This document shows positions 1,274 through 64,000 of a stretch of DNA of 64,000 nt, piece by piece. Location: positions 62,001 to 126,000 of the forward strand of contig QPGO01000181.1 in the NCBI GenBank assembly GCA_008632985.1, given 5' to 3'. Source of the DNA: Psammoneis japonica (Eukaryota). The position numbers were made by a program, and so were the translations under genes. A model generated the notes under the pieces. That model was not told where the DNA came from. It did not search any database and saw only the letters and a list, made by a program, of their open reading frames with translations. Positions within the stretch are counted from its first letter, which is position 1, and each line of letters starts with the position of its first letter.

Positions 1274-1518
1274 TGACAGAATTTGAACAAGATTTTAGTT
1301 TATCACACATGATTATGTGTGCTCTTAGTTCCGCGCGTGTCACGAGATGTAGTTTGCTTTCGAGCCACACGGCTCACAAGAACAATGACAGTAGTGCCGA
1401 CATCACGACACCAGTCTTTCAGCTCCTGCAATGGTCTCTGCACGGAGACTCATCTGCCATTTAGACAGCAGCAAGGAGTTGTTGTTTTCTTCCACCCAGT
1501 CATCTTCATTTTCTGTCA
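1274..1518 (+). repeat. 5' LTR of Copia B1
   Basis: Aligns to 12690-12934 with ~15 substitutions; TG...CA termini. Confidence 0.95.
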
Positions 1519-2310
1519 GATTAACAGTCTTGCTCTTTATTGTCCATTGAGCGTTCATCATCGTCATCGAGAAATTTTCGACGATGCGCACCGTTGGCGG
1601 TGGAAGTACATGTCTACCTTCTTCACTGCTGGATGCTGGATTAAATCTACACATTTGGATTTATCCAACACCTCCCATCATTGCATGTGTTTGTTCAACG
1701 GACATTTGTTTGGTCAGGAATTCCCGAATTCTCAGAAATCTGAGATTCCGGATTCCCCGCAGCAGATTCTGCCCTGGTTGGCAGACAGACCAATCCATCT
1801 GCTCGTGCTCATGTGCGCACGACATGAGCCCTTGACTCTGGCCCTGCTTCGCACATGCCAAGTCCACCACCTTGCATCTGCACCGGATTGCTGGTCTTCT
1901 GCAGTCCTGCAAGGTCCACGAACATTGGGGCAAGGGCACAGTTCCCGCGTTTGTTCGTCCCTCCACAGTGCCAAATTTGGCCGGCCTGATCGGGTCATCC
2001 AACCAACACAAAATGAGAACGGTTCGGAGGTCTTGTCCACCTCCAGCTGGCTTGTCAGCAGGGGTTTTTAACCCATTGCTCCACTCTCAAGCAACCCAAA
2101 TTGTCACCAGCTGCGGGTTCGGACGTGCCGGTACAACTCTGCGGACCGGATGGGAAGCTTGGCACTTAACTATGAACAGGACATCACAGCCCGGCGGCTT
2201 CTGACTCTTGAGATAGTCCAAGACATCAAGTCAAGATTCAAGTCAAGTTTCAAGTTATTACAAGCTCACCCTCCAACTCTAGCTAGTTCCGACATCCACC
2301 TAGTTGCAAC

Positions 2311-3435
2311 ATGGTTCTCACCAGGCAACAACAAATCGATGGCCTCGAGCACATTCTAGGCACTGTTCTGAATCAAGCCTCAGACAGTCCATTGCGCTCT
2401 GCTCTCAACATTGATGGAACCGATTTGCACCAAGACCTTTTCACTTTTACTCCGATGCAATTGGATGCCCTTGTGTACAACGACGGAACCAATCAAATGC
2501 CTTTGCCACGTGGTTACAAAGCACAGATGGCTGCATTGATTAACCTGTACACAGTAAAAGCGCGTGGTTGCGTGGATGTTAGCAATGACCCTCAATTGTT
2601 CACACGAGAGGAGTTCACCAACCATCGTCTTAGTCCTGAGTGTGCAGCGTCCCTCTCCATGGGCACAGCACCATCTGCTCCCACTCCTGGCTCATTGCCA
2701 CCCAAACCACGTGATCCCGTGCGTGACTTTAAACGAGGCATCAAACGTGACCCACTTGCCTTCGCGCTTCTCAAGTCTGACAAACAGTGGCACACGTGGC
2801 ACACCTCCATCATCGCACAGGCCCGCTCCCAAGACATCGCACGCATTCTTGACCCGACGTACAAGCCCTCTGCAGCTTAGGACAAGGCCCTGTTTGCTGA
2901 ACAACAGAAGTGCATGTTCGCCGCATTCAAACGGATCTTGCAGAAAGACAAAGGCAAGGCTCTTGTTCGTCAACATGTCGGCTCCTCTGATGCTCAAGCG
3001 GTGTATTGTGACCTTTTCCAAGCATGCCCTCACTTCCACTCGCGCATCCCTGGAGTCCTCGACTCTTCTCACATACCTCACCACTGCTCGCCTTGGTGAT
3101 GGCACCTGGAAAGGTTCCACTCATGCCTTCATGCGCCACTGGCAGGACCAGCTCGGCAAGTGTGAAGCTCTTATCCTGGGTGCGGACCATTTTCTGCTGG
3201 CCAGAAACGTGTCATGCTTGAGAACGCCGTACATCCTGTCGAGGAACTCCATTCAGTGAAGAATCAGGCCGATCAGTTCCGCACGCAGAATGGAAAGGGA
3301 CTCTCTTATGAAGAGCACTGTGGACTCCTGCTTTCTGCTGCAGCACAGCACAACAGCACGTTCACCCCCAAGATGGCTCCTCGCACTCCGCGCCGTGCCA
3401 TCTACGAACATCACCTGGTCCCTGACGACCCTGAT
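2311..3435 (+). pseudogene. Gag of Copia B1 (stop at 2878-2880, frameshifts); interrupted by nested element
   Basis: MVLTRQQQ...RDFKRGIKRDP...KQWHTWH homologous to the gag at 4651; reading PDDPD|DDVFFDIDSDVD resumes at 10547. Confidence 0.9.
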
Positions 3436-3711
3436 TGACAGGATTTGAACAGGATTTAGGTGCGCGCGAAGTATCGCGCGCTGTTTAGTTTACCGTGCAC
3501 AGTTTTGTGTGCTTTAGTTCCGCGCGTTCACGCGCGATGTAGTTTGCTTTCGAGCCACAAGGCTCACAAGAATAATAACAGTAGCCCGATTATACCGACT
3601 TACACGTCTTTCGGCTCCTGTGACGGTCTCTGAGCGGAGACTCATCTGCTATTTAGACAGCAGTAAGGAGTTATTGTTTGAATTCTTGCCATTTGCCTTC
3701 AATTTCTGTCA
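3436..3711 (+). repeat. 5' LTR of Copia A1
   Basis: TGACA...TGTCA; 274/276 identical to 3' LTR. Confidence 0.97.
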
Positions 3712-3722
3712 GATTAACAGTC
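3712..3722 (+). promoter_or_regulatory. Primer-binding site GATTAACAGTC (complementary to tRNA-Asn(GUU) anticodon arm)
   Basis: Directly after 5' LTR; identical at 1519-1529 and 62268-62278; reverse complement GACTGTTAATC. Confidence 0.75.
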
Positions 3723-4650
3723 TTGCTCATTGTCAACCCATTGAGCAACCGCCATCGTCGTCGTTGATTTACCAACGACGCTATTTCAATTCTACGTGGA
3801 CCTCCGTATATATCCTACATACATCGGCAAGTCTACGCGCATTCAATACCAGGGCATCGGCAGGAAGTTAACGTCACCGTCAAGTCTCCTTACCGCTGGA
3901 TATCTGGATTGATTATACTACCTTTGATCGCTGAAGACATACATTCAACGGTCATATCCAAGTCTATCCTTGATCCTCATCCCTTGATATACCTATTCAT
4001 CGGTTAACGGTCAAGAACCCTACATATTCAAGGATCTTCGTCGCTGAAGACATATATATATATACATATCTTCACGGCCAAGAACCTGTACCCACTCTTC
4101 GGACTACGGTTTTGCTGCCACTCTACAAGCACACCGAGTCCATTGTACCTGATCTACCCCGGACTACTGGTGCTCTACAGTTCTACTAGGTCCACGAGGA
4201 CGACTGTGAGAGCAAGTAGCCGTGATTACAGTCTACGTTGGGGCGAGGGTGCTTTCCCGCGTTTGTTCGTTCGTCCACAGCGCCTAACGCCTACGTCAAC
4301 TGGCCAGCCTGATCGGGAAATCCAACCGATATAAAATAAGAACGGTTCGGGGGTCTTGTCCACCTCTAGTCAGCTTACCTGCAGGGGTTTACAACCCGCT
4401 ACTCCGCTCGTAAGCAACCCAAAGTGCCACTAGCTGCGGGTTCGGACGTGCCGGCACAACTCTACGGACCGGATAGGAAGTTTAGCACTTAACAACGAAC
4501 GGGATAACAAAGCCCGGCGACTTCTGATTTTAAGATAGTTCAAGATTTCAAGTCAAGTCTGTTTCAAGTCAAGTCTATTCTCACCCAAGTTTCGAGTCTA
4601 CCTTCGCTTCCCAACCAGAATTGATTGTCCTGACACCACTTTTGTCTACC

Positions 4651-7600
4651 ATGGTTCTCACTCGTCAGCAACAAACCGATGGTTTCGAGCACGTGGTTGG
4701 AACCGTGCTTGCCCAAGGTGCTGGGAGTCCTCTTCATTTGGCTTTGGCCCAAGACGGCACGGACTCGCATCAGGAACTATTCACGTTCATACCGTCCCAA
4801 ATCGACTCGCTTGAGTACGACAACGGCACTAATGTAATCCCTTTGCCCCGTGGTTATAAGAACATGTTAGCAGCACTAGTCAGTCTGTACATTGTCAAAG
4901 CACACAAAGGTCTTGACGTTGCCAACGACTCCTCTTTGTTCATGCATGACGAGTTCCTTGCCTACCGCCTCAGCCCCGACTACATGTCTTCTGTGTCCAT
5001 CGGCAGCTCACCCCTTGCACCTCCACATGTCACCAACCCGACCAAGGCACGCGACCCGGTGCGGGACTTCAAGCGAGGCATCAAGCGTGATCCCACCGCT
5101 TTCACGGCTCTCAAATCCGACAAGCAGTGGCACACTTGGCACACCTCACTTGTGGCACAAGCCCGTGCCCAAGACGTCGAGTGCATTCTAGACTCGTCGT
5201 ACAAACCGACCAGCCCCGAAGACAAACTGCTCTTTGCTGAACAGCAAAAGTACATGTTCGCCGTCTTCGAACGCATCCTTCTCACCGACAAGGGCAAGGC
5301 TCTCATTCGCGAAAATGTGGGGTCTTCTGACGCACAGACCGTCTACCGTGCCTTGTCTGAGTACGCGCTTGCCTCCACCCGCGCATCTATCGAGTCCTCC
5401 ACCCTGCTCACGTACCTCACCACCGCGCGTCTTGGTGATGGCACTTGGAAAGGTCCGACCCACGGGTTCATCCTTCATTGGCAAGATCAGTTGCACAAGT
5501 ACGAGGCACTCATCCCGGCCAGTGACCACTTCTCTGAAGGACAGAAGCGCGTCATGCTCGAGAATGCCGTGCACCCTGTCGAGGAACTCCGTGCTGTCAA
5601 GAACCAAGCTGATCAGCATCGTACGCAGAGTGGCAAGAGCCTCACATACGATCAACACTGTGGCTTGCTCCTCTCCGCGGCAGCTCAGTACGACAGCACG
5701 TTTCAACCCAAGACGACACCTCGAGCTCCCCGACGCGCCATATACGCACACGACGTCTACTCCGAGGAACCGTCCGACGATGTGTTCTACGACATTGACA
5801 GCGACGTTGACGTCCTCCAAGCCAATGCTGCCTACACCCGCGGTCCCAGCCTCACCGGTGTCCAATGGAGACGTCTCCCTCCCGACCACCAACGGCTCTG
5901 GGATTCGTTGCCCGATTCCTCCAAGGCGATCATCCTTGAGCATTCTCGTCCACCTCCCCGCAACCCGCGAGCCAGCAACTACCATGAGTCTGTTACGGCC
6001 AACCTTCACGACCAACGCCTTGGGAGTGACGGTGATGTCAACTTGTCCAACACGACTCCTGCTGACTCTGGTGACTCCGCTCCACATGTGGACGCCACTT
6101 CGGATAATCCCATCCTGGCGCACCTCACCAAGCGCAAGCCACTGCCACCCGGTGATCTGCAACGTCTGTTGTCTCCTAACCAAGCCCCCAATGCCAGTCG
6201 ACCGGGGCCATCCGCCGCTTCCTCTACCCCGCCAGCTTCTGCAGATGACATAGAACTTAACGGCCGCACTTGCCGCCGCGTTAACAACCACAATGTCATT
6301 TACTCTGCCTCTGCTCATCGCTCCACACGCACTGGCGCTCTAGTCGATCGTGGGGCCAACGGCGGCATTGCTGGCGACGACGTTCGCGTCATTGCACGCA
6401 CCTCTCGCCAAGTCGACGTTCAGGGCATTGACGATCATCAATTGGTGGACATCCCCATTGTCACCGCTGGTGCCGTTATTGAGACCCAGCGTGGTCCCGT
6501 CATCGCCATCCTCCATCAGTGCGCGTGCACGGGCAAGGGCAAGACCATCCATTCCTGCGGCCAACTCGAATGGTACAACCAGGATGTCAACGATCGCTCT
6601 GTCAAGGTGCCCAACGGCTTGCAACGTATTGCCACTCCTGATGGCTATGTCATCCCCATTGACATCAAGGCTGGCCTGCCCTATGTTGCCATGCGACCTT
6701 ACACTGACGCCGAATGGGACACCCTGCCCCATGTCATCCTCACCGGTGATGACACATGGGACCCTTCCGTCCTCGATCACTCTGTCACTGACGACGACCA
6801 GTGGTACGACGCGATCTCTGACCTACAGGACGATCCCACTGCCAACCTATTTGACGAATACGGCAACTACCGTCATCGTGTCGTTGTCAACGAGACCATC
6901 ATGTCCGCTTCCTTGTCTGCCGATCACGCGTCCGCCCTCGATGATCACCTCATTCCGAACGACGACGTGTTCTACGAGTGTCATCTGCATGCGATTGACC
7001 CCCAGGGCGATGACGTTCCACCTCCGGAGCGCACTGTACAGCCCAAGGACCCCCCCTTCGAGTCTCTTCGGCCTTGCTTTGGCTTCCTACCTGCCGATGC
7101 GGTCCGTCGTACTTTTGACTGCACCACGCAGTGCGCCCGCATGCCCGCCGGCACACACCTTCGCAAGGCCTGCAAATCACCCAACCCCGCCCTTAATGTG
7201 CACCGCCGCAACGAGCCTGTCGCCACTGACACCGTTTGTGCCGACACCCCGGCCGTCGACTCTGGTTGCACCAGCGCCCAACTGTTTGTTGGCACCGAGT
7301 CTACCGTCACTGACGTCTGCGGCACTAAGACGGACAAAGAGTTTGTCAACACACTCGAGGATCAGATCCGTGAACGTGGTGCCCCATCCAAACTCATTAG
7401 CGACCGTGCTCAAGTTGAGATCAGCAACAAAGTGCTCGGGATCCTGCGCGCCCTCTTCATCTCTAGCTGGCAAAGTGAGCCTCACCAGCAACACCAAAAC
7501 TTTGCCGAGCGTCGCTACCAGACCGTGAAGCGCATGGCGAACACTGTCATGGATCGTTTTGGTTCGCCCGCCCACACATGGCTGCTGGCGCTCATGTACG

Positions 7601-10318
7601 TGTGCTTCATACTCAACCATGCAGCGTCCCCACGTCTCCACTGGCGCACGCCCCTCGAGACTCTCACTGGCTCCACCCCGGACATCAGCCCCTTGCTTCG
7701 CTTTCACTGGTGGGAACCCGTGTACTTCCACCTCGATGACTCCGATTGGCCGTCCGAATCCCGTGAGTTGCGTGGACGCTTCGTTGGCATTGCTGAGCAC
7801 GTCGGCCACCAGATGACCTTCAAGATTCTATCTGACGAGACTCAGAAGATCCTCTGCCGGTCCAACGTCCGCTCCGCTACCCCCGATCCTGCCGTTCGAA
7901 ACCTGCGTCTTGATCCTCCTGATGGGGAGCCACCTGAACCCATCATCAAATCTCGCCATGACGACAACCCCGTCGACTCTCCTGATGGGGAGATCAGGAC
8001 ACCCAAGATGCCAGTTTTCGATCCGCAAGACATCATTGGACGTACCTTCCTCATGCAGCCACAAGAGGACGGACAACGCCACAGAGCTCGCATCGTCAAG
8101 GCCGTCGAAGACCACGAATGGAAAGTGAACGGCAATCCCGAGCTCACTAAGTTCGTCTGCTCTGTCAACAATGACGAATACGAGGAAGTCCTTGCCTGCA
8201 ATGACATCATGAATCACATTGAGCAAGAAGACGAAGACACCACTGTTTGGAAATTTCGACGCATCGTGTCACACGAAGGACCTCTGAAGCCTCACGACCC
8301 AACCTGGAAAGGCTCCAGCTACAACATCATGCTTGAATGGGAAAGTGGGGAGATCACGTCCGAGCCTCTTGCCATCATCGCCAAGGACGACCCCGTCACC
8401 TGTGCCATCTATGCACGAGAGAACGGACTCCTCGACACGGATGGCTGGAAGCGGTTCCGCACCATCGCGAGGCGCCAAAAGAAGCTGTTTCGCATGGCCA
8501 ACCAAGCCAAGCTTCGCTCCTTCCGCACTGCACCTCGCTACAAGTGTGGATACGAAGTTCCCCGGAACTGCAAACACGCCATGTCACTAGACGAACGCAA
8601 CGGCAACCGCAAGTGGGGAGACGCAACTAATCTCGAGATGGACCAACTCGACGAATACGAAGTCTTCCATGACTGCGGGCCCTTCAAGTCTTCCACTCCT
8701 CCTGCGGGACACAAGAAGATCCGAGTGCACCTAGTGTGCGACGTGAAACACGACGGTCGCCACAAGGCACGACTCGTAGCCGACGGGCACCTCACGGACG
8801 TACCCATCGACAGTGTCTACTCCGGAGTAGTCTCCCTCCGTGGCCTTCGGCTGATGATTTTCCTGGCCGAACTCAACGAGTTGGAGACATGGGCCACCGA
8901 CATTGGCAATGCCTACCTTGAAGCCACCACCAAGGAGAAGCTTTACATTGTAGCTGGACCCGAGTTCGGCAAACTCGAAGGACACATCCTTGTCATCCAC
9001 AAGGCACTGTATGGACTGCGCAGCTCCGGTCTCCGCTGGAACGAGCGCTTCGCCGACTGCCTGCGAGCTGAAGGCTTCTTCCCCTGCCGCGCCGAACCCG
9101 ACATTTGGATGCGCAGGAACGGCGACCACTATGAATACATTGCCTTTTATGTGGATGACCTCGCCATTGCCATGAAGGACCCTCAATCTTTCGTCGACAC
9201 TCTCACGGAAAAGCACAAGTTCAAGCTCAAGGGTACGGGACCCATTGAGTTCCATCTGGGTTGCGACTTTTCCCGGGAACCCGACGGAACCTTGTGCCTG
9301 TCTCCGCGCAAGTACATCGAGCGCATGGTCGACAGCTGTGCCCGACTGTTTGGGGAGAAACCTACCACCAACGCCCTGTCACCTCTAGAGAAGGGTGACC
9401 ACCCCGAACTGGACACTTCGAACTGCTGGGACCCGATGGCATTCACAATTCCAGTCTCTTGTTGGTTCACTCCAATGGGCAGTGTCCCTTGGTCGAATTG
9501 ACATTGCCACGGCCGTCATGTCACTCTCTAGCTTCCGAGCTGCGCCCCGTCAAGGCCACTTGGATCGTGCCAAACGCGTCTGTGGGTACCTCTCCAAGAT
9601 GCGACACGGTGCTCTCCGCGTTCGCACGGAAGAGCCCGACTGTTCGGATCTCCCTGCTCCGGCCTATGAATGGATGCATTCCGTGTATGGTGAAGCAGAA
9701 GAGATGATCCCGAAGGACGCTCCACCGCCCCTTGGCAAGTTCGTCACTACCACCCACTACGTCGATGCAAACTTGTACCATTGCATGCTCACCGGACGCT
9801 CTGTCATGGGAATGCTCCACTTCCTCAACAAATTCCCGGCTGATTGGTTCTCTAAGAAACAAGCCACCGTGGAGACTGCGACCTACGGGTCTGAATTTGT
9901 TGCCGCAAGGACTTGTGTTGAGCAGATTGTCGACCTGCGCATCACCCTGCGCTACCTTGGCGTCCCGATCCGTAACGTTAGTTACATGTTCGGTGACAAC
10001 AAGTCGGTTGTAGACAGTGCCACCATCCCGCACTCCAAGTTACACAAGCGACACACCGCACTATCGTTCCACCGTGTGCGTGAGGCAATTGCCTCTGGTT
10101 ACCTTGAGTTCCACTTCATCGAAGGCTCCCGCAACCCTGCTGACATTCTCAGCAAGCATTGGGGTTACTCCCAAATCTGGGACCTTCTCCGCCCCCTCAT
10201 GTTCTGGAACTTCATTCCATCCGAAGTCGAATCTGTTTCTGTGGCTCCTCAAGCAAACTGGGGAGTGACAGGATTTGAACAGGATTTAGGTGCGCGCGAA
10301 GTGTCGCGCGCTGTTTAG
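4651..10318 (+). CDS. Copia Gag-Pol polyprotein (Gag, aspartic protease, integrase, chromo-like segment, RT, RNase H); frame broken near 9420-9446
   Basis: ATG at 4651; protease ALVDRGANGG (~6337); integrase core ISDRAQVE / SEPHQQHQNFAE; RT DIGNAYL, KALYGL, YVDD (9148-9159); RNase H YVDAN, ETATYGSEF, FGDN, NPADILSK. Two apparent 1-bp deletions separate ORFs 4621-9501 and 9395-10318. Many expected Tyr read Cys/His. Confidence 0.92.
10255..10265 (+). promoter_or_regulatory. Polypurine tract
   Basis: aaactggggag abutting 3' LTR; same motif precedes LTRs at 12690, 36474, 39462. Confidence 0.8.
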
Positions 10319-10541
10319 TTTACCGTGCACAGTTTTGTGTGCTTTAGTTCCGCGCGTTCACGCGCGATGTAGTTTGCTTTCGAGCCACAAGGCTCACAAG
10401 AACAATAACAGTAGCCCGATTATACCGACTTACACGTCTTTCGGCTCCTGTGACGGTCTCTGAGCGGAGACTCATCTGCTATTTAGACAGCAGTAAGGAG
10501 TTATTGTTTGAATTCTTGCCATTTGCCTTCAATTTCTGTCA
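10266..10541 (+). repeat. 3' LTR of Copia A1
   Basis: Matches 3436-3711; followed by TSD CTGAT. Confidence 0.97.
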
Positions 10542-10546: not shown

Positions 10547-12689
10547 GACGATGTATTCTTCGACATCGACAGTGATGTTGACGTCATCCAAGCTCATGCT
10601 GTGCAAACTCATGGCAATTCCCTCACCAAGGAACAATGGCGTCGCATTCCGCCCGGACCATCAGCGCATTTGGGACACCTTGCCCCAGTCCACCAAGGCC
10701 ATCATTCTTGGCTCGCGCACCGCCCACACCGGCAACTGCCATGACTTGACGGCGGTCAACCTGCACGACCTCCGCATTGGCAGCAATGGCGATGTCAACT
10801 TGTCCGCCAACACTCACGATCTTGCGTCAGCCTTCGCACAATCTGACGCCACAGCCGATGCAGCCGACACTAACCCCATTCTGGCTCATCTCACCAGGCG
10901 CAAGCCCCTGCCACCCGGCAACTTGCAATGTCTCCTGGCCCCCTGAACGGCCTCCTTCCACCTGTTCTGGTGAGAAACCGCCTGGATCTGCACCTTCTGT
11001 CCGCTCCGACGCTAAGCCCAATGACATTGACGTCCAAGGTGTCGATGATGATCAACTGGCAGACATTCCCATTGTCACTGCTGGTGGTGTCATCCACACG
11101 CAACGTGGCCCTGCCATTGCCATCCTTCACCAGTGCACCTACACTGAAAAGGGGAAGACAATACACTCTTGCGGCCAGCTCGAGTGGTACAAAGACGAGG
11201 TCAACGATCGGTCCATCAAGGTCCCCGACGGTCTGCAGCACATCACCACTGTTGATGGATGCGTCATTCCCATTGACATTAAAGCCGGCCTCCCGTACAT
11301 CGTCGAGCACGTTGGTCACCAAATGACATTCAAGATTCTTTCTGTTGACACTCAGAAGATTCTCTGCAGTTCCAACATGCGCTTCGCCCGTGATCCGTCT
11401 GCTCCAAACCTGCATCTTGATCCTCCTGATAAGAAATCTGCTGAAACTGTCATTAAATCCCGCCATGACTCCGAGGATTTGCCAGATTCACCAGATGGGG
11501 AGGCGATCAGGATGCCCAAAATGCCGGTCTTTGACCCCGAGGACATCACAGGATGCACCTTCCTCATGAAGCCACAAGAGGATGGACAACGCCACAGAGC
11601 CCGCATCGTCAAAGTCGTTGAGGACTACGACTGGAAAATCGGAGACAATCCTGAACTGGTCAAGTTCATTTGCTCGGTCAACAATGATGAATGCGAGGAA
11701 GTCCTAGCCTGCAATGACATCATGCACCACATTGAGCAAGAAGACGAGGACACCACCCTCTGGAAGTTCCGACGCATCGCATCACACGAAGGACCATTGC
11801 AACCCCATGATCCCTCTTGGAAAGGCTCAAGCTACAACGTCATGCTTGAATGGGAGAATGGGGAGATCACGTCTGAACCCCTTGCCATCATTGCCAAGGA
11901 CAACCCCGTCACCTGTGCTGTCTACGTGCATGAGCACGGCCTTCTAGAAACCGAAGGATGGAGACGCTTTCGCAAGATAGCCCTTCGTCAGAAGAAGCTA
12001 TTCCGCATGGCCAACCAAGCCAAGTTACGCTCCTTTCGTACTGCGCCACGATGCAAGTGCGGGTGTGAAGTGCCATGGGACTACAGGCATGCCATGGCCC
12101 TTGATGAGCGCAACGGCAACCGCAAGTGGGGAGACGCAACGGACCTCGAGATGACTCAGCTTGATGAGTACGAGGTCTTCCACGACTGCGGACACCACAA
12201 TGATTCCAGTGCTCCATCAGGACACAAGAAGATCCGGGTACATCTCATCTATGACGTCAAACATGACGGACGGCACAAAGCAAGGCTTGTTGCCAATGGA
12301 CATCTCACAGACGTGCCCGTCGACAGTGTCTACATTGATCTTCGCATCACTTTACGTTACCTTGGCGTTCCCATTCATGAAACATGTTACATGTTTGGGG
12401 ACAACAAGTCGGTTGTGGACAGTGCTACCATCCCGCACTCCAAGTTACACAAGCGACACACCACCCTCTCATTCCATCGTGTACGTGAGGTGATTGCCTC
12501 CGGTTTCCTCGAGTTTCATTTTATCGAAGGCTCCCGCAACCCGGCTGACATCCTCAGCAAGCATTGGGATCATTGCTCCCAAAGCTGGAACCTCCTTCGT
12601 CCTCTAATGTTTTGGAACTTTGATCACAAGGCTTTCAACCAATCCGACTTTGAATCTATCGCTGTTGACCCCTCAAGCAAACTGGGGAG
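10547..12689 (+). pseudogene. Deleted pol of Copia B1 (lacks protease active site, integrase core and most of RT)
   Basis: Junctions relative to A1: ...KAGLPY|IVEHVGHQ (~11298) and ...VDSVY|IDLRITLRY (~12333). Confidence 0.88.
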
Positions 12690-12934
12690 TGACAGGATTT
12701 GAACAAGATTTTAGTTTATCACACATAATTATGTGTGCTCTTAGTTCCGCGCGCGTCGCGCGATGTAGTTTGCTTTCGAGCCACACGGCTCACAAGAATA
12801 ATGACAGTAGTACCGATATCACGACACCAGTCTTTCGGCTCCTGTAATGGTCTCTGCACGGAGACTCATCAGCTATTTAGACAGCAGTAAGGAGTTATTG
12901 TTTACTTCCACCCAGTCATCTTCATTTTCTGTCA
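12690..12934 (+). repeat. 3' LTR of Copia B1
   Basis: Matches 1274-1518; preceded by PPT, followed by TSD CGTCA. Confidence 0.95.
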
Positions 12935-50693: not shown

Positions 50694-51219
50694 GGTGTTG
50701 TTGTGCGTTATCGTGTTGTTTGCGCGCGAAGAACACGGGATCTATTTATCCGATAGTGACTCTGTTTTGCTAATAGTAGATGTTCTACTATATCCAATCT
50801 GTACATATTTTGAGAAGCGCTTCGGGGAAACCCTGTTCGGACCGTTAAATAGAAAATTTTTTTATCCAGATTCCAGAGTTCTTTTGGGGTGTTCTGTAAG
50901 ATTTTTGAATTGCTACATGTACATATTGAAAGCATAACAAAATTTTATAATATGTAAAAGCTTCAGAGACCAACATAAATTTATGTTCCATGTAGACCGC
51001 GTAGATTGTGTACCGGCGGAAAATCCACCGCCTGTCAACTCATCAGTAGTAATTCTACGTATATTCTACTTACACCTCACACACGCACACACGCCTACAC
51101 AGTCTAATAACCGCGCACACGTGCGCGAGATAAAACAAGAAATAGCTCGTACATTTGCATTAATTAAAAAAAACCGTTACGAGGTCTGAACACTAACAAT
51201 GTTGTGTGCTGTTTTCGGC

Positions 51220-54200: not shown

Positions 54201-55089
54201 TTGAGCACACAGGACTCTGCTTTGGATGATGCCCTGAGAACAAAATAACAGAACTGTTGGGAATGGTTGACCCTGACCAAATTTTGTTTGGGAGCAAGCC
54301 ACACCAGCACCAGTGCTGGTAAAAGATGAAGTGAGCACACATGATGACACACATTGTGAGCAGCAGTCAGCCAGACTCTTTTCCCTCTGTGATTTTTTAT
54401 AGATCTGCAACTTTCTCCTTTGCTCTGTCATCCCAAGCGGTCACTTTTCTCTTTCGAGCAGCCATTTTCTTTTCTTCAAATGTTCAAAGTGAGATTTGTT
54501 GCCTGGAGTCACAAAGCCTGCAGGTGCGTGCACTTTCCGTGGTCTTCCAGTGTGTCACTTGGATGTCCACTCCAAGATGACACCTCCAACCAGCAGAGGG
54601 TGAGCAGAGACTCTGCACTGTTGAGCAGCAATGTGGCATTTAGTCAAGAGTGTTTCACAGAAACACAGCTGACTAAATTTTGAGTTGTCTAGACCAAAAT
54701 CTGGTGAGTGCAACCAGACAACTCACAGTGCAAAAATCCACACTGTCTGGTGCACCGGAGGAGTTGCCAAGTTCTCAACAATCAATCATGCATCCACAAG
54801 AACCAAACTGGGCCTTGTGACACTCACAGCACATGGTTGTTGTTGAGCCATGAGCTCCAACAATGTGATCCAAAGTGGCGGGAAGATTCTACAAGGATAA
54901 ACAGACAGACACAAAGTAGATTGCTGGACAGATGATCCACGACTCTCCCTCTAATTCACAGATTTGATCATCAACAAACAAAAATTCTTCAGAGACAAGC
55001 TGATGCTTACACAATTGGCACAAGTTCAGAGCAATGCTCCTGCATCTTGACCAAACTACAACATGTGACAAACAAACAAATGTCCCAAC
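51220..55089. other. Heavily eroded TpA/CpG-depleted sequence, probable transposon remnants
   Basis: Same composition as other decayed repeats; no firm domain call. Confidence 0.45.
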
Positions 55090-55093
55090 AATT

Positions 55094-55492
55094 GACGCAT
55101 TCCAGCTCCTCTGGGTGGGACCTCGCACTGCTGAACTGTGACATCAACAGTTTTTTGGATTGCGTCGTATCTCGTGCACGCACATTTCTGCATGTGACAC
55201 ATTACGAAATTGTTTCACACTCCCTGTTTTGCAAAGCCAAAGGCTTTCTATTTTCAACATTTACAAGAATGAAAACATGCTGGGTGCATTCTTTAATGTC
55301 TGCAGAATGCACCCGGGCAGACTGTCAATGATGCACTCCAAGTGTGAAGGAGGAGATGCATTCGTAAAATTGCCTCTTTTTTGTTGGCAATCATTTGTAT
55401 TTTCATTGCTTGACAAATTTACTGTGGAGCTTGCACACAGAATTCTGCAGGCCAAATGTCACACAGAGTCCCACCCAGGACTGGAACCCATC
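55094..55492. mobile_element. MITE, internal-deletion relative of 27636-29836
   Basis: Matches 27636-~27950 and ~29755-29836; TSD AATT (55090-55093, 55493-55496). Confidence 0.85.
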
Positions 55493-55495
55493 AAT

Positions 55496-58330
55496 TTACC
55501 AACCCTGAACCTTCTTCCTGTTGGCAAGAAAGAGCTCTCTTGTCAGAGGCTTGTTGAGGAAATCCATGAGCTGATCTGCCAACTCCACCTTGACAACAAC
55601 AAACGCATGGCTGTGGGACCAGAACCAATGCCACTTGACCAGAAAACACTTGGCATGGTTGGCAATGCGGTGGTCAGTCGCAAGGAAGAAGGCACCTTGG
55701 TTGTCCTCAAACACGCATGCACAAATCAACGTGGAGAGGTCACGGTGAGCATTGAGAGTCAATGCAATCTCCTGTGGGATCCTCTTTAAGGGCAAGATGG
55801 TCCCAAGGGTGCAGGAGGTGGCTTGGTGCTCGGCTTCAAGGGCAGAGCAGGACAAAGCCATCTGGAGTTGGGATTTCTAGACCAAAAAGCATGTGTTGAG
55901 GGTGACAAGATAGCCAGTGCAAGAGCAAACCAAGTTTGGATCAGAGTCTGGCTCCTGATGGAATGGACCAGCGGAATGGGCGTCCACCCACAAATCAAGG
56001 TCCAAAGCACCCACATGAGACAAGAACACCCCACCAGCACGGGTCTTCTTGAGGTGGTGGATGAGGGTCTTGACAGCAGTGGCATGAGACTTCTTGAGAG
56101 CTGAATTGAAGTGGGCAACTTGGCTGGCAGCGAAAGCAATGTCAGAGCGAGTGTTGGCAGAGAGACACAAAAGCATGCCAATGATGGAGGGGTGGCTCCA
56201 AGCCTTGTCCATGGGTGCAGGCAAGATGTTGGGTTTGCAGTTTTGCAAGCCAGCAGCAGCAAGAATCTTGTCAATCAACCCAGACTGCAACAACTTGATG
56301 GTGCCATTGTCCAACTTTTTGAACTTGACACCCGGGAACCAGGTGACACCACCTTCCTTGGTCAACTCAAATCCTTTCTCGTGCAGTCCTTTGATGACCT
56401 GATCAATGGCAGACTCGTGTGCTGTGCTGATCCCACAGCTGTGGACAAACAGACAGATCACACAATCATGATGGAGGAAAAGGAAGGGATTAAACTTGCT
56501 CTGGATAAATCCCAGATCCAAAAAGGCTTGAAGGCAGTGCTTGCACCACAAATTTGGGGCAGAGGAGAGTCCATGCAGACTCTTGTTGAGCTTCAAACAA
56601 ATCTTGGTGGGCCCAAGAGAAGACCTGTGTCCTTGAGGCAAATGGATCCACACTGGTTCATCCATTGGAAGAGCAGCTTGCACAAACACAAACTGAAAAT
56701 CCACCAACACAGTGATCCAACCCATGATGAGACTGAAGCCGAGGAACAACTGAATGGCACTCCAAGCCATGACCGGAGCACAGGTGTCTAAAATGCCATC
56801 TTGCAAATCTCTGCAACAGCAGCAGCAAGCCTTGCATTTCTTGATTTCTCCAGATGGCGAGCGCTTGCAACAGAATGCCCAAGTGCCAGGAAGTGTCCTG
56901 GACTTGGCATTGGATGTCACAACTTTGGTCCAAGTGCCTTGCTTCTCACAAGGGCAGTGATTTCCACTTCAGCTGATTGCAACCATTTTTTGCATTTCAA
57001 GCTTTGCATGGCTTTGTTCCAAGACAAAGCATCTGGGTCCTTGGCCTTTTGCAATGTCTTGCACACCAAAGGGGCAGTCACAGTGATGGTGCAGCTGTGA
57101 TTGAATGCATGGGCATGAAGAAGGTTGGCAAAACGAGCCAAACAGCTCCTTGGGAACCATCAAAACCAACACATTGGGGAGGAGCTCAAGTTCCAGTGGA
57201 GCATCTGAGGCCGGCAGCAGCAGGTGTTGGCTCCCTCTGTTGGCCTGCAGAAGAAGGCTCCCTCTTTTGACTGAAATGGGGTGATAAATTTTGGGGAGTC
57301 AGAGGGTCCCATTGCAGACTGGCATCAATGCTTGGCAGTGGCTGCAGAGCTGTCTTCCTCTGAGGTGAAACCGGGACAGCAGGACCATGGGGAGACTCTT
57401 TTGGGGCTGTGGATGGAGGAGGAGGCACTGGAGACATTGCCAGAGGACTCAAAGAAGCCGCAGGAGGAGAGTCCAAGGGTTGAACCACCAGAGGAGGAGC
57501 CACATTCAACAGAGCCAGAGGCAGTCATGACTTGGTGGTGGCTTGGACTTCACACAGCCAGCAATGACATTTGTCATGTTCTTGCACAGTGCCATCTTTC
57601 TCCTTGTCTTCTTTGTCCATGGCATGCTGGCAGATGCTGTCTTCAAAGAGAGACTGTTATTTTGGGGTGTCAACAGCCGGCAAATCATCTTGATCTGAAT
57701 TGACAGCAGCAAACCAGTCATCAAAAATGACATGAAATTGTGGGGTGAACATGCCTGAGTCAAGGCCAAGCACTGACGGGACTGAGGATGCATGCTCAGT
57801 GCTGACAAGCAAATCTTGATAGAGTGGTCTGTCTTGGTCAGTGTGTGGGAAATGAGCAGGCAGAACAGGTTGGGAAGCCTGATTGAGACAGGGCAAGAGT
57901 GTTGTGGCATGAGCCGCAGCATCACATCACTCTGTTTGTTTGCTTTGTTAGAGCTGCGGTCCATTGTTGAGCATCCAAGTGCAATGAAATTGTCATCGTA
58001 TGGGCATGACACAAAATGACATGTGTGGTCATTCATTGCTGTGAAGAACCACATGGGTGTCAGCTGCAGAAACAGTGCTGGGTCCTGCCTGTGCATGCAT
58101 TGTGCAACATTGCGATTTTGGCAATGATGCAAACCATGAAACTCACTCCTGCAGTTGAGACGGCATCACACTTGCAAATCAATTGGTTTTCGACATGCGC
58201 AACAGGTGCCAAACACAGCAGTGTGGGGCAGCATGCCCAGAGCATGTGCTCACCCAGACAAAATGGCATGGGGTGGCCTCTCATTGCCAGTTGACTGTGT
58301 GGACCTGTTGCCATGGCACTGGCAGAGTGT
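55496..58330 (-). pseudogene. Decayed Copia pol (family F): integrase, RT, RNase H
   Basis: PQFHVIFDDWF; LPGTWAF..KR.P.GEIKK; DTCAPV; KLNKSLHGL; DQLMDFLNKPL...RKKVQGW. Confidence 0.88.
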
Positions 58331-58439
58331 TTAGTCTCCCGTCCATGCCCATTGTGAGAGTCTCACAGCCACTGCAATTTGATTGTCTTTGTGACACAGG
58401 AGACATGGCAGCAGCAGCAGTTTAGGCTCTAGCAGCATT

Positions 58440-59370
58440 GGTGCTGGCAGTGGACGTTGACAATGTTCTACAGACATGTGGCATTGCCAATGTCAATGCA
58501 AGAGCCGGTTTGGTGCATTGTGATGGATTTGTGACTTTGGAAGACATTGCAGTTGTGGAAGGTGACTCGGACATGGAAGACATGGCAAACAGAGGGAGTT
58601 GGTCATCACACTGACCAGGATGGGAGAGCGACACTTGGCACTGTCAAAATTAAGAATTTGCAAGCTTTGGTCTGGTGGCTTTGTGATCATCAGAAGCACA
58701 ACCTTGCATTGGATGCAGCACTGTTTTATCAGGCAGCACTGGTTGATGCTTGCCAGAAGAAGCATGTTGAAAAGGACATGGTTGAATCAGAAGTGTCCGT
58801 CAGCTCCTTGTTGGCATTTAAGTTGGAAGATTTTGATGTGATGGAGGATGCATTTTTGAACCTCTTGTCACAGAAGATTGGGGTGTTGAAAGAACCATTG
58901 CGTCATGTGGCAAGGCCAGCAGTGGTTCCGGCCACATTTGTTGAGACACTGTAGAGGAGCGTGCATTTCAATTGAGTTTGAATGGGATGGCATTCGATCA
59001 GGACAATCGCACTGTGTGTTGTCTGTTGAAAGCTCACCTGGTGAATGCAGAAGTGGCAACTTGGATTGAAGCCCACAATGACACAGAGAATGGGAGAGAT
59101 GCCTTTTGGGCATGGGCAGACCATTGCAATGGACAGGGAGAGCTTGGCAAGCACACTCAGTTGGTGTTGGCAAACATCAGGTCATTGCATTGTGAGAGCA
59201 TTGCTTGTCATTTGAATGGTGCACAGCAAACTCACCAGTGCATTTGCAACCTTGACAAAGGATCAGGACAAGTGTAAGACAGACAAGCAGAAAGTTGAGA
59301 TTCTCCAATGGGGGATTAAGACCGATGATGTTTGGCTGCAAAAGCTTGCATCCCTGTGATCAGTCAGCAG
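58440..59370 (+). pseudogene. Decayed Copia-type gag fragment
   Basis: GTVKIKNLQALVWW; AFLNLL..IGVLKEPLRHV; F.QDNRTV..LLK; NGRDAF...DHCNGQG resemble diatom Copia Gag. Confidence 0.65.
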
Positions 59371-59379
59371 CATCCTCAT

Positions 59380-61989
59380 GACTTTCCTGGCGCATGTGCA
59401 CTCTTTTCCGCTGAAGTTTCTTGTTTGCATGGTGCATCTGATGCAGCCTCTCAATTGCTGTTTGCTCAAACCTGAGCCACTGTCATTCATGAGATGCGAC
59501 AGCAATGTCACATTCAATGTTTTGCATTTCAAATTCCCTCAGTGTTCAAATGGACTGTGTTGTCTCAATTCCACAAATCTTGCACTTTGGAAGGGTGGCA
59601 CATCTCTGAAGAACACATCGAGTTCACATCCATGGGTGATGCCATTGACTGTTCCACTGCATTCATGATCGGATTCCATGCAGGAGTCACAGGGGCGAAA
59701 GTTTCTGTTGACATCCTTCGACGGCCTCAAATGAAACCACCATCCATTGCTCAACATCTGTGCAAACCCTTCAACTCCAATTACTTTGCAATGTCTGCCT
59801 TGCCCGATGCTGCAAACTCCAAAGCCAATGATGACAAGTTTGTTTTGGAGACAGTCAACCCAGTTCAACCACCAACACCACTCGCATCTCTGATGACAGC
59901 ACGCTTGATCGAAAAAGGCCCTTTGCCCTCCAATTTGTGTGGTGCATGGAGGTGTGCGATGTTGACCATCCTGCTCCACCTGTCAGCCCATTCAATGACA
60001 ACGCATTCAATCAAGTCTTTGGTGTCCTTTGCAAGGATGAAGATTCCAAGACAAGAACCCACTGTGTCTCCAAGTGTGAGCACACATCTTGCTGGGGCAT
60101 GGAACGCAACCTGACTTGCAAGCCATGTGCGGATCCCCATCATCTCAGTCTGCTGGCAAATGGTGTACCTGGAAAGACAAGTCATGTGATCATCCAATGC
60201 ATCCACAACAAACTCACCGATGTCCAGCTGTCATCCGTCGAGCTTGTTGATGCCTCACAGGAAACTGCTCCAGCAGCAACCACTCAAGCATTTCTTGATG
60301 GTTCCACATCCACCCTGTCTCCCAAGCCATCACACTTGGATCAAAGAACATTCTCATGATCCCGAGACAAAACTCCTTGTGGACATGACATCCAATCTGT
60401 TGCTGATCATCAAAGATGATCTTAAGAAAATCCACTTCCACTGTTGGCAACCCATGTGTGCAGGGAACATCGTCATCAAAAATGACTTTGTGGTTCTCTG
60501 AAAATCAGTTGACTCTGCATGGAACTTCGCCAAGCTGCACATCACACCAAAGACTCTTTGGAATGTCATTTTCATCACATTTCACACAAACCCCATCGGC
60601 AGTCATTTCAGCATCTGTTGCACATTCCATCACATTCAACTTCATCACTTTTGGCCCAACATGTGAAAGCACATTGCATGACAGATCAACAAATGCCCAG
60701 GATGTACCCTGGCCAATGCTTGGCACCAAAAGAAATCTGAACTTGTGCACTCATTTCTGGCAGACAAATGTTGAGTTGATGCACACAGATGTGCACAACA
60801 TCGGCCATCAACAAGAGGATTCCATGGTGAGAAATGATGCATGATTGCAGTTGATGGCCTCATCACATTTGCAGTGTCCGAAGAAATCCACGGCAAAGTC
60901 AACGCAGACAGCTTCAGCAGAGCCATCATGAAAATTCTCCTAAACCACCGCATGTGTCATGCCATTGTCATTGACAAAGAGTTTAAATTTTGTGGAGCAT
61001 TCATCCAAGCAGCAGCCCTGTCAGGACTCAACCTTCACCAAGCCTCAGGAGGAAATGACAATCCAGTGTTGACCAAATGTTGTCATGCATTCCTCAACAA
61101 ATCCCTCCAAATCTTTTGCAATGAACAAGATTCAGTCTGCACCAATGCCGAAGGTGTCCACCTTGCAGCACATGCGTGGAATTCTGCCCCAGTCATCGCA
61201 CAGACTTGAGCCGATCCTCAGTTGCCATTGGTCAAGAACGTCAGTTCCCAATTGATTGCACCAATTCAAAATGCATCAACTTGCACCCAATGACCAAATC
61301 AGTTGAGAACCATGCACCAAGCAATTGTGCAATCTTCTCCCAAAATGTCAGGAGGCATTTAAAATCCTTGTCTAAGAGCACCAAGCCATGCTCCACAAGT
61401 GCATCAACAGCAATCACCTAGATCCTCTGGTGCATTCAGTCGGAGACTTTGTCTTCATCAGGCAAGCCATCAAATCAGACACCCAATGTGGTCGAGTCAA
61501 CAAAATTGTGTTTTGCCATGCTGGCCCATGGAAGATCATTGAAAGGCCACCAGGAGCCTCACACTGTGTCCGTCACTGCAAGACTAAAGCAGAAGACAAA
61601 AAGCATGCTTCTCATGTTTCCCCATGTCCCATGGAGCTAATTCCTTTCCCTCCTCTCACAGGACCAGATGGCTCCTGCAAACAAATCAACCAATCAATCA
61701 AGAAGCACCCCTTTTTAGAAGCCAGCTTTGACTCCTGCATGCCACTCCAACCCTGGAAACTTGCCAACACTGGCAATGTGCCATCATCTCAATCTCTGCT
61801 GTCTCCAGCTAACTTGGCATGTGTTGAATCTGCTGTGCACTTTCCCAACACTTGCTGAACTCAATGATGAACTTGACCGATTGCACACCACAGACGGATT
61901 CCTGCCAGAAATGACAGATCATCTTAAACCCTCATCAAATCCCATTTGCATTGAGGTGCTCGAAAGCATCAATGCAAACACAAACAATT
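59380..61989 (+). pseudogene. Decayed Ty3/Gypsy pol 3' part with integrase
   Basis: Zn-binding FHTNPIGSH...FWPNM...CPGC (~60580-60710); core LMHTD, IVIDK; GDFVF...AGPWKII (GPY/F-like). Confidence 0.75.
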
Positions 61990-64000
61990 TGACAGGATTT
62001 GAACAGGATTTAGGTGCGCGTGAAATGTCGCGCGCTATTTAGTTCACCGTGCACAGTTTTGTGTGCTCTTTAGTTCCGCGCGCACGCGCGCGATGTAGTT
62101 TGCTTTCGAGCCACAAGGCTCACAAGAATAACAACAGCAGCCCGATTATACCGACTTACACGTCTTTCGGCTCCTGTGACGGTCTCTGAGCGGAGACTCA
62201 TCTGCCATTTAGACAGCAGTAAGGAGTTGTTGTTTGAATTCTTGCCATTTGCCTTCAATTTCTGTCAGATTAACAGTCTTGCTCATTGTCAACCCATTGA
62301 GCAACCGCCATCGTCGTCGTTGATTTACCGACGACGCTATTTCAATTCTGCGTGGACCTCCGTATATATTCTACGTGTACATCGGCAAGTCTACGCGCAT
62401 TCAATACCAGGCATCGGCAGGAATTTAACGTCACCGTCAAGTCTCCTTAACGCTGTATATCTGGATTGATTATACTACCTTTTATCGCTGAAGACATACA
62501 TTCAACGGTTATATCCAAGTCTATCCTTGATCCTCATCCCTTCATATACCCATTCAACGGTTAACGGTCAAGAACCCTACATATTCAAAGATCTTCGTCG
62601 CTGAAGACATATATATATCTTCACGGCCGAGAACTTGAACCCACTCTTTGGACTACGGCTTTGCTACCACTCTACAAGCACACCGAGTCTATTGTACCTG
62701 ATCTACCCCGGACTACTGGTGCTCTACAGTTCTACTAGGTCCACAAGGACGACTGTGAGAGCAAGTGGCCGTGATTGCAGCCTACGTTGGGGCGAGGGTG
62801 TTTTCCCGCGTTTGTTCGTTTGTCCACAGCGCCTAACGCCTACGTCAACTGGCCAGCCTGATCGGGAAATCCAACCGATATAAAATAAGAACGGTTCGGG
62901 GGTCTTGTCCACCTCCAGTCAGCTCACCTGCAGGGGTTTACAACCCGCTACTCCGCTCGTAAGCAACCCAAAGCGCCACTGGCTGCGGGTTTGGACGTGC
63001 CGGCACAACTCTACGGACCGGATGGGAAGTTTAGCACTTAACAACGAACGGGACAGCACACCCCGGCGACTTCTGATTTTAAGATAGTTCAAGATTTCAA
63101 GTCAAGTCCATTTCAAGTCAAGTCCATTCCCACTCAAGTTTCAAGTCTACCTCCGCGTCCTAACAAGAATCACTTGCCCTGACACCGCTTTTGTCCACCA
63201 TGGTTCTCACTCGTCAGCAACAAACCGATGGTTTCAAGCACGTTGTTGGAACCGTGCTTGCCCAAGGTGCTGGAAGCCCTCTTCGTTTGGCTTTGACCCA
63301 CGATGGCACGGACTCGCACCAAGAACTGTTCACGTTCATGCCTTCCCAAATCAACTCGCTTGAGTGCGACAACGGCACCAATGTGATCCCATTGCCCCGA
63401 GGTTGCAAGAACATGTTAGCAGCTCTAGTTAGCCTGTACATTGTCAAAGCACACAAGGGCCTTGATGTTGCCAATGACTGTTCGTTGTTCACGCATGATG
63501 AGTTCCTTGCCTGCCGCCTCAGTCCCGACTGCATGTCTTCTGTGTCCGTCAGCAGCTCACCTCTTGCACCTCCGCACGTCACCAACTCGACCAAGGCACA
63601 CGACCCAGTGCGAGAATTCAAGCGAGGCATCAAGCGTGACCCCACTGCTTTCACGGCTCTCAAATCTGACAAACAGTGGCACACTTGGCACACCTCACTT
63701 GTGGCACAAGCCCGTGCCCAAGAGGTCGAGTGCATTCTAGACTCATCGTACAAACCGACCAGCCCCGAAGACAAACTGCTCTTTGCTGAACAGCAAAAGC
63801 ACATGTTCGCCGTCTTCGAATGCATCCTTCTCACTGACAAGGGCAAATCTCTCATTTGTGAAAATGTGGGGTCTTCTGATGCCCAGACCGTCTGCCGCGC
63901 CTTGTCCGAGCATGCGCTCACCTCCACCCGTGCATCTATCGAGTCCTCCACCTTGCTCACGCACCTCACCACCACACGCCTTGGTGATGGCACTTGGAAA
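61990..64000 (+). mobile_element. Copia subfamily A copy A2, 5' part (LTR 61990-62267, PBS, leader, gag from ATG 63200), runs off window
   Basis: High similarity to 3436-5450; expected TSD CAATT (61985-61989). Confidence 0.95.

Follow-up and report, generated by a model that had tools for sequence, protein, structure and literature searches.

To judge from a 2026 preprint on the chlorarachniophyte Bigelowiella natans (bioRxiv 10.64898/2026.01.13.699255), natural, targeted hypermutation of DNA from A:T to G:C was unknown before that report. In the mutation-accumulation lines described there, the mutation rate of two integrated viral regions is about 1000 times that of the remaining genome, some lines only being affected, and A>G or T>C accounts for 210 of 211 and 20 of 20 of the mutations that arose in them, all of these A>G/T>C changes lying at TpA. 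The preprint also finds TpA-poor coding sequences of B. natans enriched for reverse transcriptase (RT) and DDE domains, and its authors, Mettrop et al., propose an ADAT2-like DNA adenine deaminase, citing DNA activity reported for amphioxus ADAT2. Here we describe a window of 64,000 nucleotides from the diatom Psammoneis japonica (assembly GCA_008632985.1, contig QPGO01000181.1, positions 62,001 to 126,000 of the forward strand; coordinates below count from the first letter of this window), which is composed of nested copies of one Ty1/copia long terminal repeat (LTR) retrotransposon family. A preliminary description of this DNA had proposed a strand-symmetric A:T to G:C process that turns TpA into TpG or CpA in repeats, a reversed form of fungal repeat-induced point mutation (RIP), and knew of no described system of the kind; the last point no longer holds, as the hypermutation that the preprint reports in B. 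natans is likewise TpA-only and from A/T to G/C. In the library searched, that preprint was the sole directly relevant paper and nothing on diatoms turned up; the window would be a new, second lineage for a process described only in 2026. We consider it probable that the window covers a stretch of diatom chromosome rich in transposons, likely to be silenced and CpG-methylated, in which two dinucleotide-specific transition processes have gone nearly to completion. The first would convert TpA to TpG or CpA, an A:T to G:C change that can strike the A of TpA in either strand, and would be the diatom counterpart of the TpA-only hypermutation of B. natans; the second would be ordinary decay of CpG to TpG or CpA from 5-methylcytosine (5mC).

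The composition of the window is strongly skewed. Over the whole 64 kb the observed/expected ratio (obs/exp) is 0.23 for TA and 0.49 for CG, with 1.58 for CA and 1.61 for TG. The pooled depleted sequence (41.2 kb) contains 306 TA and has obs/exp values of 0.11 for TA, 0.28 for CG, 1.73 for CA and 1.76 for TG, whereas the sequence of normal composition (5.96 kb, comprising the LTR and untranslated region (UTR) of two young copies, A1 and A2, plus an island with a host gene) contains 326 TA, with values of 0.83, 1.00, 1.19 and 1.07, respectively. The TpA depletion of the repeats is real, lies well outside what chance would give, and is stronger than had been claimed. G+C content is equal in both sets (0.48), and the total share of pyrimidine-purine (YpR) steps, calculated from the pooled counts, is constant at 24-25%: what was TA and CG has merely become TG and CA. 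The 1-kb profile of TA is two-peaked, with values of at most 0.15 in 34 of the 64 windows, and 46 of the 64 satisfy the cut-offs of the B. natans preprint. The long-term footprint reported there, in which 1-kb windows poor in TpA and rich in CpA+TpG lie in clusters, is also found here, and the depletion is fuller, TA standing at 0.04-0.15 over tens of kilobases as compared with 0.45 in a B. natans viral insert, according to the same source.

The changes were read from several copies of the retrotransposon family. A1 (3436..10541, forward strand) is a young Ty1/copia element with paired LTRs, a target-site duplication and a match to the RT domain RVT_2 (E=1.2e-28); A2 (61990..64000, forward), 92.5% identical to A1, comprises a 5' LTR (61990-62267), the UTR and the start of gag, and ends at the window edge. 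The old copies are B1 (forward; 5' part, the gag region, 1654..3435, and 3' part 10547..12934), B2 (forward; 29839..34438 and 36755..39706) and the fragmentary B3 (22658..25356, reverse strand). To polarize the changes, the A1 protein was aligned with 24 full-length metagenome relatives (60-70% identical), a residue conserved in at least 70% of them being taken as ancestral, and the aligned triplets of B1-B3 were read at these outgroup-conserved positions. The outgroup proteins confirmed that TA is the ancestral state, as the preliminary description had argued from the tyrosine of the RT motif YxDD.

At 35 positions of conserved Tyr, B2 kept 7 and carried Cys at 16 and His at 9; the corresponding figures were 10 kept, 5 Cys and 5 His for B1 (21 positions) and 3 kept, 7 Cys and 6 His for B3 (18 positions). 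Pooled, 48 of the 74 conserved Tyr had become Cys (28) or His (20), with 6 other changes. On the other hand, ten control classes involving the same transitions in other contexts were changed in only 7 of 538 cases in these copies, both for A>G at codon position 2 (N>S 0/35, K>R 3/96, D>G 1/117, E>G 0/57, H>R 0/52, Q>R 0/36) and for T>C at codon position 1 (F>L 1/49, S>P 1/46, C>R 0/9, W>R 1/41). Expressed by context, polarized A>G changes affected 28/74 sites at TpA, 3/131 at ApA, 1/174 at GpA and 0/88 at CpA, so the A>G rate at TpA is well above that in the other NpA contexts, the comparison on which the preliminary description had staked its proposal. For T>C, the polarized counts were 20 of 74 where A follows and 3 of 145 where the next base is T, C or G. 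Strict nucleotide parsimony gave A>G in 8/55 cases at TpA, 7/315 at ApA, 11/461 at GpA and 35/641 at CpA, a weak test in its singleton form, as it leaves 55 TA opportunities only, because most TA sites were hit in several copies, and as parallel loss of CpG inflates CpA>CpG. At 82 ancestral TA sites, B2 now has TG or CA at 43, has kept TA at 18 and shows other states at 21. No context beyond TpA was found around the hit TA sites, the rates being 0.18-0.31 over all flanks, and all ten NTAN classes are depleted, to 0.002-0.055 of their respective YpR family. These results show that the TpA process is directional, TpA-specific and from A:T to G:C, without further sequence context.

The individual examples from which the preliminary description had started could be verified. 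The RT motif YVDD has TAT at 9148 in A1 and TGT near 38325 in B2, where the peptide reads MAVCVDDLA; GNAYL, with TAC at codon 1461 (8914) of A1, has become GNACL with TGT in B2; and 8 of the first 10 in-frame gag Tyr codons of A1 are Cys or His codons in A2 (9 of 11 in the overlap), the first of these codons (4576) lying upstream of the probable start codon. The LTR word at 3571 shows TA>CA or TA>TG at differing TA sites in four other LTR copies. Likewise, many sites in the codon table combine a TGY codon in one copy with a CAY codon in a different one; TG and CA at the same site imply independent hits on one TA.

Both strands are affected equally. The numbers of TA>TG and TA>CA changes were 15 and 15 in A2, 15 and 13 in B1, 22 and 21 in B2, and 12 and 14 in B3. 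The LTRs of A1, which must have been identical when the element integrated, now show 2 differences in 276 positions; the 5' LTR has TA at each of them and the 3' LTR has TG at one and CA at the other, whereas 0 of 20 CG sites differ. A larger sample is provided by a segment at 12333..14770 (forward strand), which runs from the 3' end of an element into already depleted flank and is duplicated at 39108-41543 with 97.3% identity. Only 23-37 TA are left in its 2.4 kb (2,435 aligned bases), and its 63 substitution columns comprise 21 CG<>TG/CA, 17 TA<>TG/CA, 10 in five TG<>CA pairs and 15 others; by our estimate of about 40 ancestral TA sites, 17/~40 of these changed, as against 15 other substitutions per 2,435 bases. 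The TpA process thus acts on integrated DNA and equally on both strands. The core of the earlier proposal, a directional, strand-symmetric A:T to G:C process on DNA in repeat-rich sequence, is borne out by the outgroup polarization, the strand counts, the LTR pair and the duplicate taken together.

These data bear on A-to-I editing of transposon RNA, by an ADAR-like or fungal ADAT-type enzyme with a 5'-U preference, followed by reverse transcription, through which copies would be born mutated. A UpA preference fits known RNA editors, as discussed in the B. natans preprint, and the open reading frame (ORF) of A1 is hit even though its LTRs are nearly identical, so that many A1 hits predate its insertion. 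However, editing of RNA would pass on sense-strand A>G only, whereas TA>CA equals TA>TG in every copy, and the changes go on after integration and in flanking DNA that belongs to no element. Strand symmetry and the differences within the LTR pair and the duplicate exclude this route as the main source, and we find it scarcely credible as an overall explanation; to our knowledge, moreover, ADARs are confined to animals. The likeness to APOBEC3 (G>A) and ADAR (A>G) in animals lies in the use of editing as a defence against retroelements, and in the 5'-U preference of ADAR given in the preprint. Those enzymes act on the minus strand of cDNA or on RNA and are strand-asymmetric in new copies, whereas the changes seen here are symmetric and accrue in resident DNA. 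In this respect the window is like B. natans, where the preprint reports A>G and T>C at TpA only, on both strands, with foreign or transposon-like DNA hit and the rest normal, except that here the process is read from sequence and there it was measured in mutation-accumulation lines. Unlike that chlorarachniophyte with its viral inserts, the host is a stramenopile, and the targets are LTR retrotransposons and their surroundings.

The process is confined to domains that end sharply at a host gene. An island of normal composition (47500..51250, TA 0.73, CG 0.90), which carries an intact host gene on the reverse strand, is bounded at about 47,500 and about 51,250 by borders that each fall inside one 250-bp bin, at which TA and CG switch jointly; within the window, TA obs/exp is thus 0.73 in the host-gene island and 0.11 in depleted sequence. 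The preliminary description had passed over this sparing of single-copy host DNA, for which the window offers a single host gene. The affected sequence forms contiguous blocks, the longest of about 15 kb (32001-47250), and the depletion runs uninterrupted across element borders and through DNA that has no repeat in the window. Such blocks look like a chromatin or methylation domain.

This layout does not support a homology trigger, a true reverse RIP in which duplicated sequence is recognized and mutated at TpA. Every recognizable target is a repeated transposon, and A2 gag, which is held in common with the B copies, was hit more than the LTR/UTR (18 of 30 TA sites changed relative to A1 in gag and 12 of 67 in LTR/UTR), both of which speak in its favour. 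Against it, the LTR+UTR of A1 and A2, high-identity repeats of more than 1 kb (about 92.5-95% identity), retain TA obs/exp of 0.7-0.95, as do three further LTR copies; the contiguous depletion ignores element borders and continues into DNA without a repeat in the window; and the hypermutated giant-virus insert of B. natans is, according to the preprint, single-copy. We therefore consider a homology trigger quite unlikely and part here from the preliminary description, which had made repetition the signal. Fungal RIP remains comparable as a dinucleotide-specific transition hypermutation that degrades transposons in both strands and marks their composition strongly. Its direction is the opposite, CpA>TpA as given for RIPCAL, where the depleted sequence here has TA 0.11 and CA/TG 1.73-1.76; it creates stop codons, which the present process removes; and it needs duplicated sequence and a premeiotic stage, whereas here high-identity LTR/UTR repeats are spared. 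Under the reading we prefer, a TpA process guided by silent chromatin, partly mutated copies such as A1 and A2 would still be mobilized, perhaps in trans, with selection acting on the cis-acting LTR/UTR only. Mobilization of lightly hit copies would explain TA-rich LTR/UTR beside eroding coding parts and, with such selection, the excess of TA changes in A2 gag. Within A2, TA obs/exp falls from 0.95 at 62001-63000 to 0.25 at 63001-64000.

Loss of CpG accompanies that of TpA in the old copies. At 284 sites that are CG in A1, B2 has kept 57 and now has TG or CA at 171; across B1-B3, 39 of 97 conserved Arg have become His, Cys, Gln or Trp, and B2 has kept 12 of 41, with 10 His, 10 Cys and 3 Gln. 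CpG loss in the old copies is as thorough as TpA loss and supplies much of the TpG/CpA excess, and it occupies the same domain, with the same borders. The preliminary description had argued that neither RIP nor CpG deamination explains the pattern, which stands for the TpA loss; its setting aside of CpG does not, in view of this shared domain. The CpG half is the ordinary decay to TpG/CpA that would be expected from 5mC in methylated diatom transposons, and diatom transposon CpG methylation is reported to be DNMT5a-dependent (PMC9998398). Deamination of 5mC in CpG-methylated transposons would account for this half of the footprint and for its restriction to transposon domains; it cannot give TpA loss. 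In the sense of the element, the CpG changes are strand-asymmetric (CG>TG/CG>CA: B1 63/26, B2 104/67, B3 63/49, A2 17/10), whereas the TpA changes are symmetric; transcription-linked deamination or repair, or a polarity artefact, are possible causes of the asymmetry.

The two processes can be separated in time. Low TA (0.34-0.44) with normal CG (about 1.0) was found only in the A1 interior, and the reverse, low CG with normal TA, in 0 windows. The A1 ORF as a whole has TA 0.40 and CG 0.98; at 22 columns of conserved Tyr it has 7 Cys/His, and at 28 columns of conserved Arg all 28 are kept. Because A1 is TA-low and CG-normal with its Arg codons intact, TpA loss starts before CpG decay and can proceed in its absence. 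Relatives of the element in other hosts present a different picture. Among 120 relatives, the number of Cys/His at the same 22 Tyr columns was 0 in 100, 1 in 19 and 2 in 1, and the DNA of the closest relative (L001, 70% protein identity) has TA 0.84 as against 0.40 for the A1 ORF. A metagenome scan with the A1 pol protein recovered 6 loci, of which 0 were TpA-depleted (TA 0.60-0.84), and a viral-contig scan with the mutated B2 RT peptide recovered no relative. Three relatives from environmental hosts (L002, L004 and L005) have CG 0.15-0.24 with TA 0.60-0.67, a CpG-only decay; and in one protein (P0055) 10 of the 28 Arg columns were changed (Arg>Cys/His/Gln/Trp) while, of the 22 Tyr columns, 19 were kept, 1 was His and 0 were Cys. 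These relatives constitute a natural control and show that TpA loss is specific to this host lineage.

A single dual-specificity deaminase making both the TpA and the CpG changes appears improbable to us. Another link could come from biased repair, in which a TDG/MBD4-like T:G glycosylase guarding methylated CpG would resolve T:G mispairs at TpA toward G:C; the TpA effect would thereby be tied to the methylated domain, and the second-best context of TDG is G preceded by T. Such an enzyme should, however, restore CpG or create it from TpG, whereas CpG is nearly extinct (0.00-0.05 at 43-47 kb), and A1 loses TpA without any sign of CpG change. Together with rates in B. natans that the preprint puts at about 1000 times background, this makes biased repair very improbable.

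The same joint loss of CG and TA in sharp domains is what a modification-dependent miscall would produce, if modified bases of heterochromatin (5mC, N6-methyladenine (6mA) or 5-hydroxymethyluracil (5hmU)) were systematically miscalled in a long-read-only assembly. Several features speak against such an artefact. Strand-specific miscalls should, by our reasoning, leave a mixture of TA and CG in the consensus rather than near-absence; the mutated states are tree-like among the copies; the two duplicates agree at every base (100%) over a depleted stretch of 300 bp; transversions and indels also separate the copies, as in genuine old ones; and the A1 ORF is hit while the A1 LTR/UTR 1 kb away is not. 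As the process has also been proven with Illumina data in B. natans, according to the preprint, we give the miscall explanation very little credence.

As to the agent, the TpA process would be enzymatic, and the most likely enzyme would be a DNA adenine deaminase with a 5'-T preference that is recruited to silent chromatin, the inosine formed from adenine then being read as G at replication. TadA/ADAT2 and the TadA-derived base editors convert A to I at an A that follows U or T, which offers a mechanistic analogy only, and we put forward the ADAT2/TadA-like class of DNA adenine deaminases as a tentative candidate, possible rather than probable. A different chemistry would have the T (as 5hmU, for example, or as a derivative like base J) or the A (as N6-methyladenine) of TpA modified in silent chromatin and then mispaired or misrepaired. 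The palindromic target, the strand symmetry and the extent shared with the domain of CpG decay suit a maintained epigenetic mark no less than a deaminase, and dinoflagellate 5hmU favours TpA. On the other hand, we know of no TET/JBP or TpA-specific adenine methylase in diatoms, and the only paper on the phenomenon, the B. natans preprint, proposes deamination. Modification of TpA appears rather unlikely.

Several points weigh against the account we favour, a DNA adenine deaminase acting in diatoms as in B. natans. TA>TG and TA>CA changes show no strand-coordinated runs in A2 (A1>A2, 16 runs against 16.0 expected; P=0.58), B2 or B3, with a marginal result in B1 (P=0.045); a processive single-strand deaminase might leave such runs, and their absence suits a mark carried on both strands. 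The deaminase itself is borrowed by analogy from the B. natans preprint, which describes hypermutated inserts without CpG decay, and the likeness therefore extends to the TpA part only. B1, B2 and B3 share ancestry, and the pooled counts, including the 74 Tyr, are not independent events. Polarity is ambiguous at one of the two differences between the A1 LTRs, where the other three LTRs carry TG. Finally, the evidence is drawn from 64 kb only, and the reality of the base calls rests on the internal consistency of the assembled sequence.

If the account is right, the TpA process would work as a mutagenic genome defence. In its widest form, to which we give a little less than an even chance, diatoms of this lineage would possess a dedicated, chromatin-guided DNA editing defence that erases TpA from newly silenced mobile DNA before, and independently of, the 5mC decay of CpG, and that would be homologous to the B. 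natans system, old, and widespread in algae of the SAR (stramenopiles, alveolates and Rhizaria) group. A defence of this kind would so far have been hidden behind long, intact-looking transposon ORFs. By the genetic code, conversion of TA to TG or CA cannot make a stop out of a sense codon, and it abolishes TAA and TAG. Counted on both strands, TAA triplets fall from 23.3 per kb in normal sequence to 6.0 in depleted sequence and TAG triplets from 24.8 to 3.9, and 48 frames in the window extend from stop to stop over at least 200 codons, many of which overlap others on the two strands. Since no stops are created and TAA and TAG are destroyed, hit copies retain open frames that are long but spurious, even as their conserved Tyr gives way to Cys or His, and the long frame of A1 is therefore no proof of integrity. 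Dead copies with kilobase ORFs in several frames mislead gene callers and counts of intact elements, and the Tyr>Cys/His and Arg>Cys/His/Gln changes conceal copies from domain searches.

A second and clearer case, in a diatom, would show that the process is not the curiosity of one species and would add retrotransposons to its targets. The enzyme could be sought by comparing diatoms with and without the footprint; within this major group of phytoplankton, genes have been knocked out in Phaeodactylum tricornutum (PMC9998398). A natural TpA-specific DNA adenine editor, if there is one, would be of interest to base-editing work.

The assignment of the family to Ty1/copia rests on RVT_2, collinearity with copia-type relatives of 1850 aa, TG..CA LTRs and a 5-bp target-site duplication. 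The LTRs of A1 (3436-3711 and 10266-10541) are each 276 bp, begin with TG and end with CA, and are flanked by the duplication CTGAT at 3431-3435 and 10542-10546; because they are almost identical, A1 was inserted recently, and the site was within the older copy B1. Its gag-pol open frame (4534-9501) has 1655 codons, and the RNase H part lies in a separate frame, 9389-10318. The pol region appears frameshifted by homology to a relative of 1859 aa (P0002), whose residues 1589-1848 match 9443-10222 in the other frame at 80% identity. A1 is thus itself TpA-mutated and frameshifted, hence not pristine, which the preliminary description had overlooked, and would be defective in spite of its nearly identical LTRs. 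Pfam did not call the integrase (IN) in the mutated A1 protein.

The gag region of B1 was delimited by self-BLAST (71% identity to A1 4235-5750 and 82% to B2) and by tblastn with P0002 (2311-3420). Its 3' part, identified by the same two methods, holds remnants of protease (PR), IN and RT plus a 3' LTR whose end motif closes at 12934, and has no region corresponding to A1 8820-9932. B1 and B2 are 85% identical up to 12330/37994 and, beyond a 1.1-kb deletion in B1, 97% identical from 12333/39108 into the shared flank; this jump in identity gives B1 the look of a chimera, made by ectopic recombination or by conversion involving the B2 locus. The 5' part of B2 (gag-PR-IN), also found by self-BLAST and tblastn, extends to the insertion of a further element, X, and its 3' part (IN-RT-RNase H plus 3' LTR) is 75% identical to A1 7570-10542, with an RVT_2 match (E=1.4e-18) at 37902-38570. 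B3 was recognized by self-BLAST and by tblastn at 22695-25325 on the reverse strand.

Element X (34439..36749, forward strand) splits B2, is flanked by the 5-bp target-site duplication CCCTG and has a pair of A-type LTRs around a rearranged interior. Its 5' LTR runs from 34439 to about 34604, where it is truncated at a poly-A run (34605), and its 3' LTR occupies 36474-36749; both differ from the A1 LTRs mostly at TA and CG sites. The interior of about 1.8 kb consists of an inverted duplicate (34612-35283 and 35726-36397, 98.8% identical) together with a 42-bp tandem array of at least 11 units (34974-35603), and X is possibly a derivative that is rearranged or non-autonomous. Fully depleted DNA also contains, on the reverse strand, the remnant of a second and more distant copia-type RT (55880..56968; RVT_2 E=1.7e-21, about 22% identical to P0002), so at least two retrotransposon families are affected.

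Protein matches of the copia-like type cover 19,866 of the 64,000 bases, and the remainder has no recognizable domain except for the second RT remnant and the host gene. A Pfam search of 104 six-frame ORFs of at least 130 aa matched only the two RVT_2 and the host gene; this set is what remained of 113 ORFs once the gag-pol ORF of A1 and the 8 frames that overlap it had been set aside. Among the depleted blocks, the left flank (1..1250), whose source is unassigned, has 1-3 TA and 1-4 CG against 46-60 CA+TG per 250-bp bin. The block at 13001..25000 (TA 0.05-0.22, CG 0.07-0.46) holds a tandem duplicate (20886-22153) and copy B3. The most extreme block, 39707..47250, is without a recognizable protein domain; between 43001 and 47000 its values are 0.04-0.09 for TA, 0.00-0.05 for CG and 1.65-1.96 for CA/TG. 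The block at 51251..61950 includes the distant RT remnant. One pair of repeats (27648-27952 and 55109-55412, 82% identical), of unassigned family, has 15 homologous dinucleotides that are TG in one member and CA in the other, and gives the most concentrated evidence that ancestral TA or CG sites common to two copies were converted independently.

The host gene has three exons (about 50035-49466, 49350-48775 and 48673-47840) separated by two short introns of about 100 bp. Its product combines a TALE (KN) homeodomain (Pfam Homeobox_KN, 7.9e-17) with a C-terminal RING finger, the RING-finger matches falling under the Pfam cut-off except for zf-C3HC4 (22.4 bits, cut-off 21). A tblastn comparison aligns it collinearly, from end to end, with diatom proteins. 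Its named relatives all come from diatoms or diatom-carrying samples (among them Seminavis, Pseudo-nitzschia, Nitzschia, Cylindrotheca, Skeletonema, Epithemia and Chaetoceros), with 78% identity in the best match, which places the host among the diatoms and apart from B. natans. A dinoflagellate origin was rejected on these relatives and on a search for a spliced-leader fragment, which gave 2 hits at 3 mismatches where chance predicts 3.6; the ESM Atlas yielded no more than weak hints of Oomycota and Bacillariophyta. The architecture of TALE homeodomain plus RING is common to many diatom proteins of 600-770 aa.

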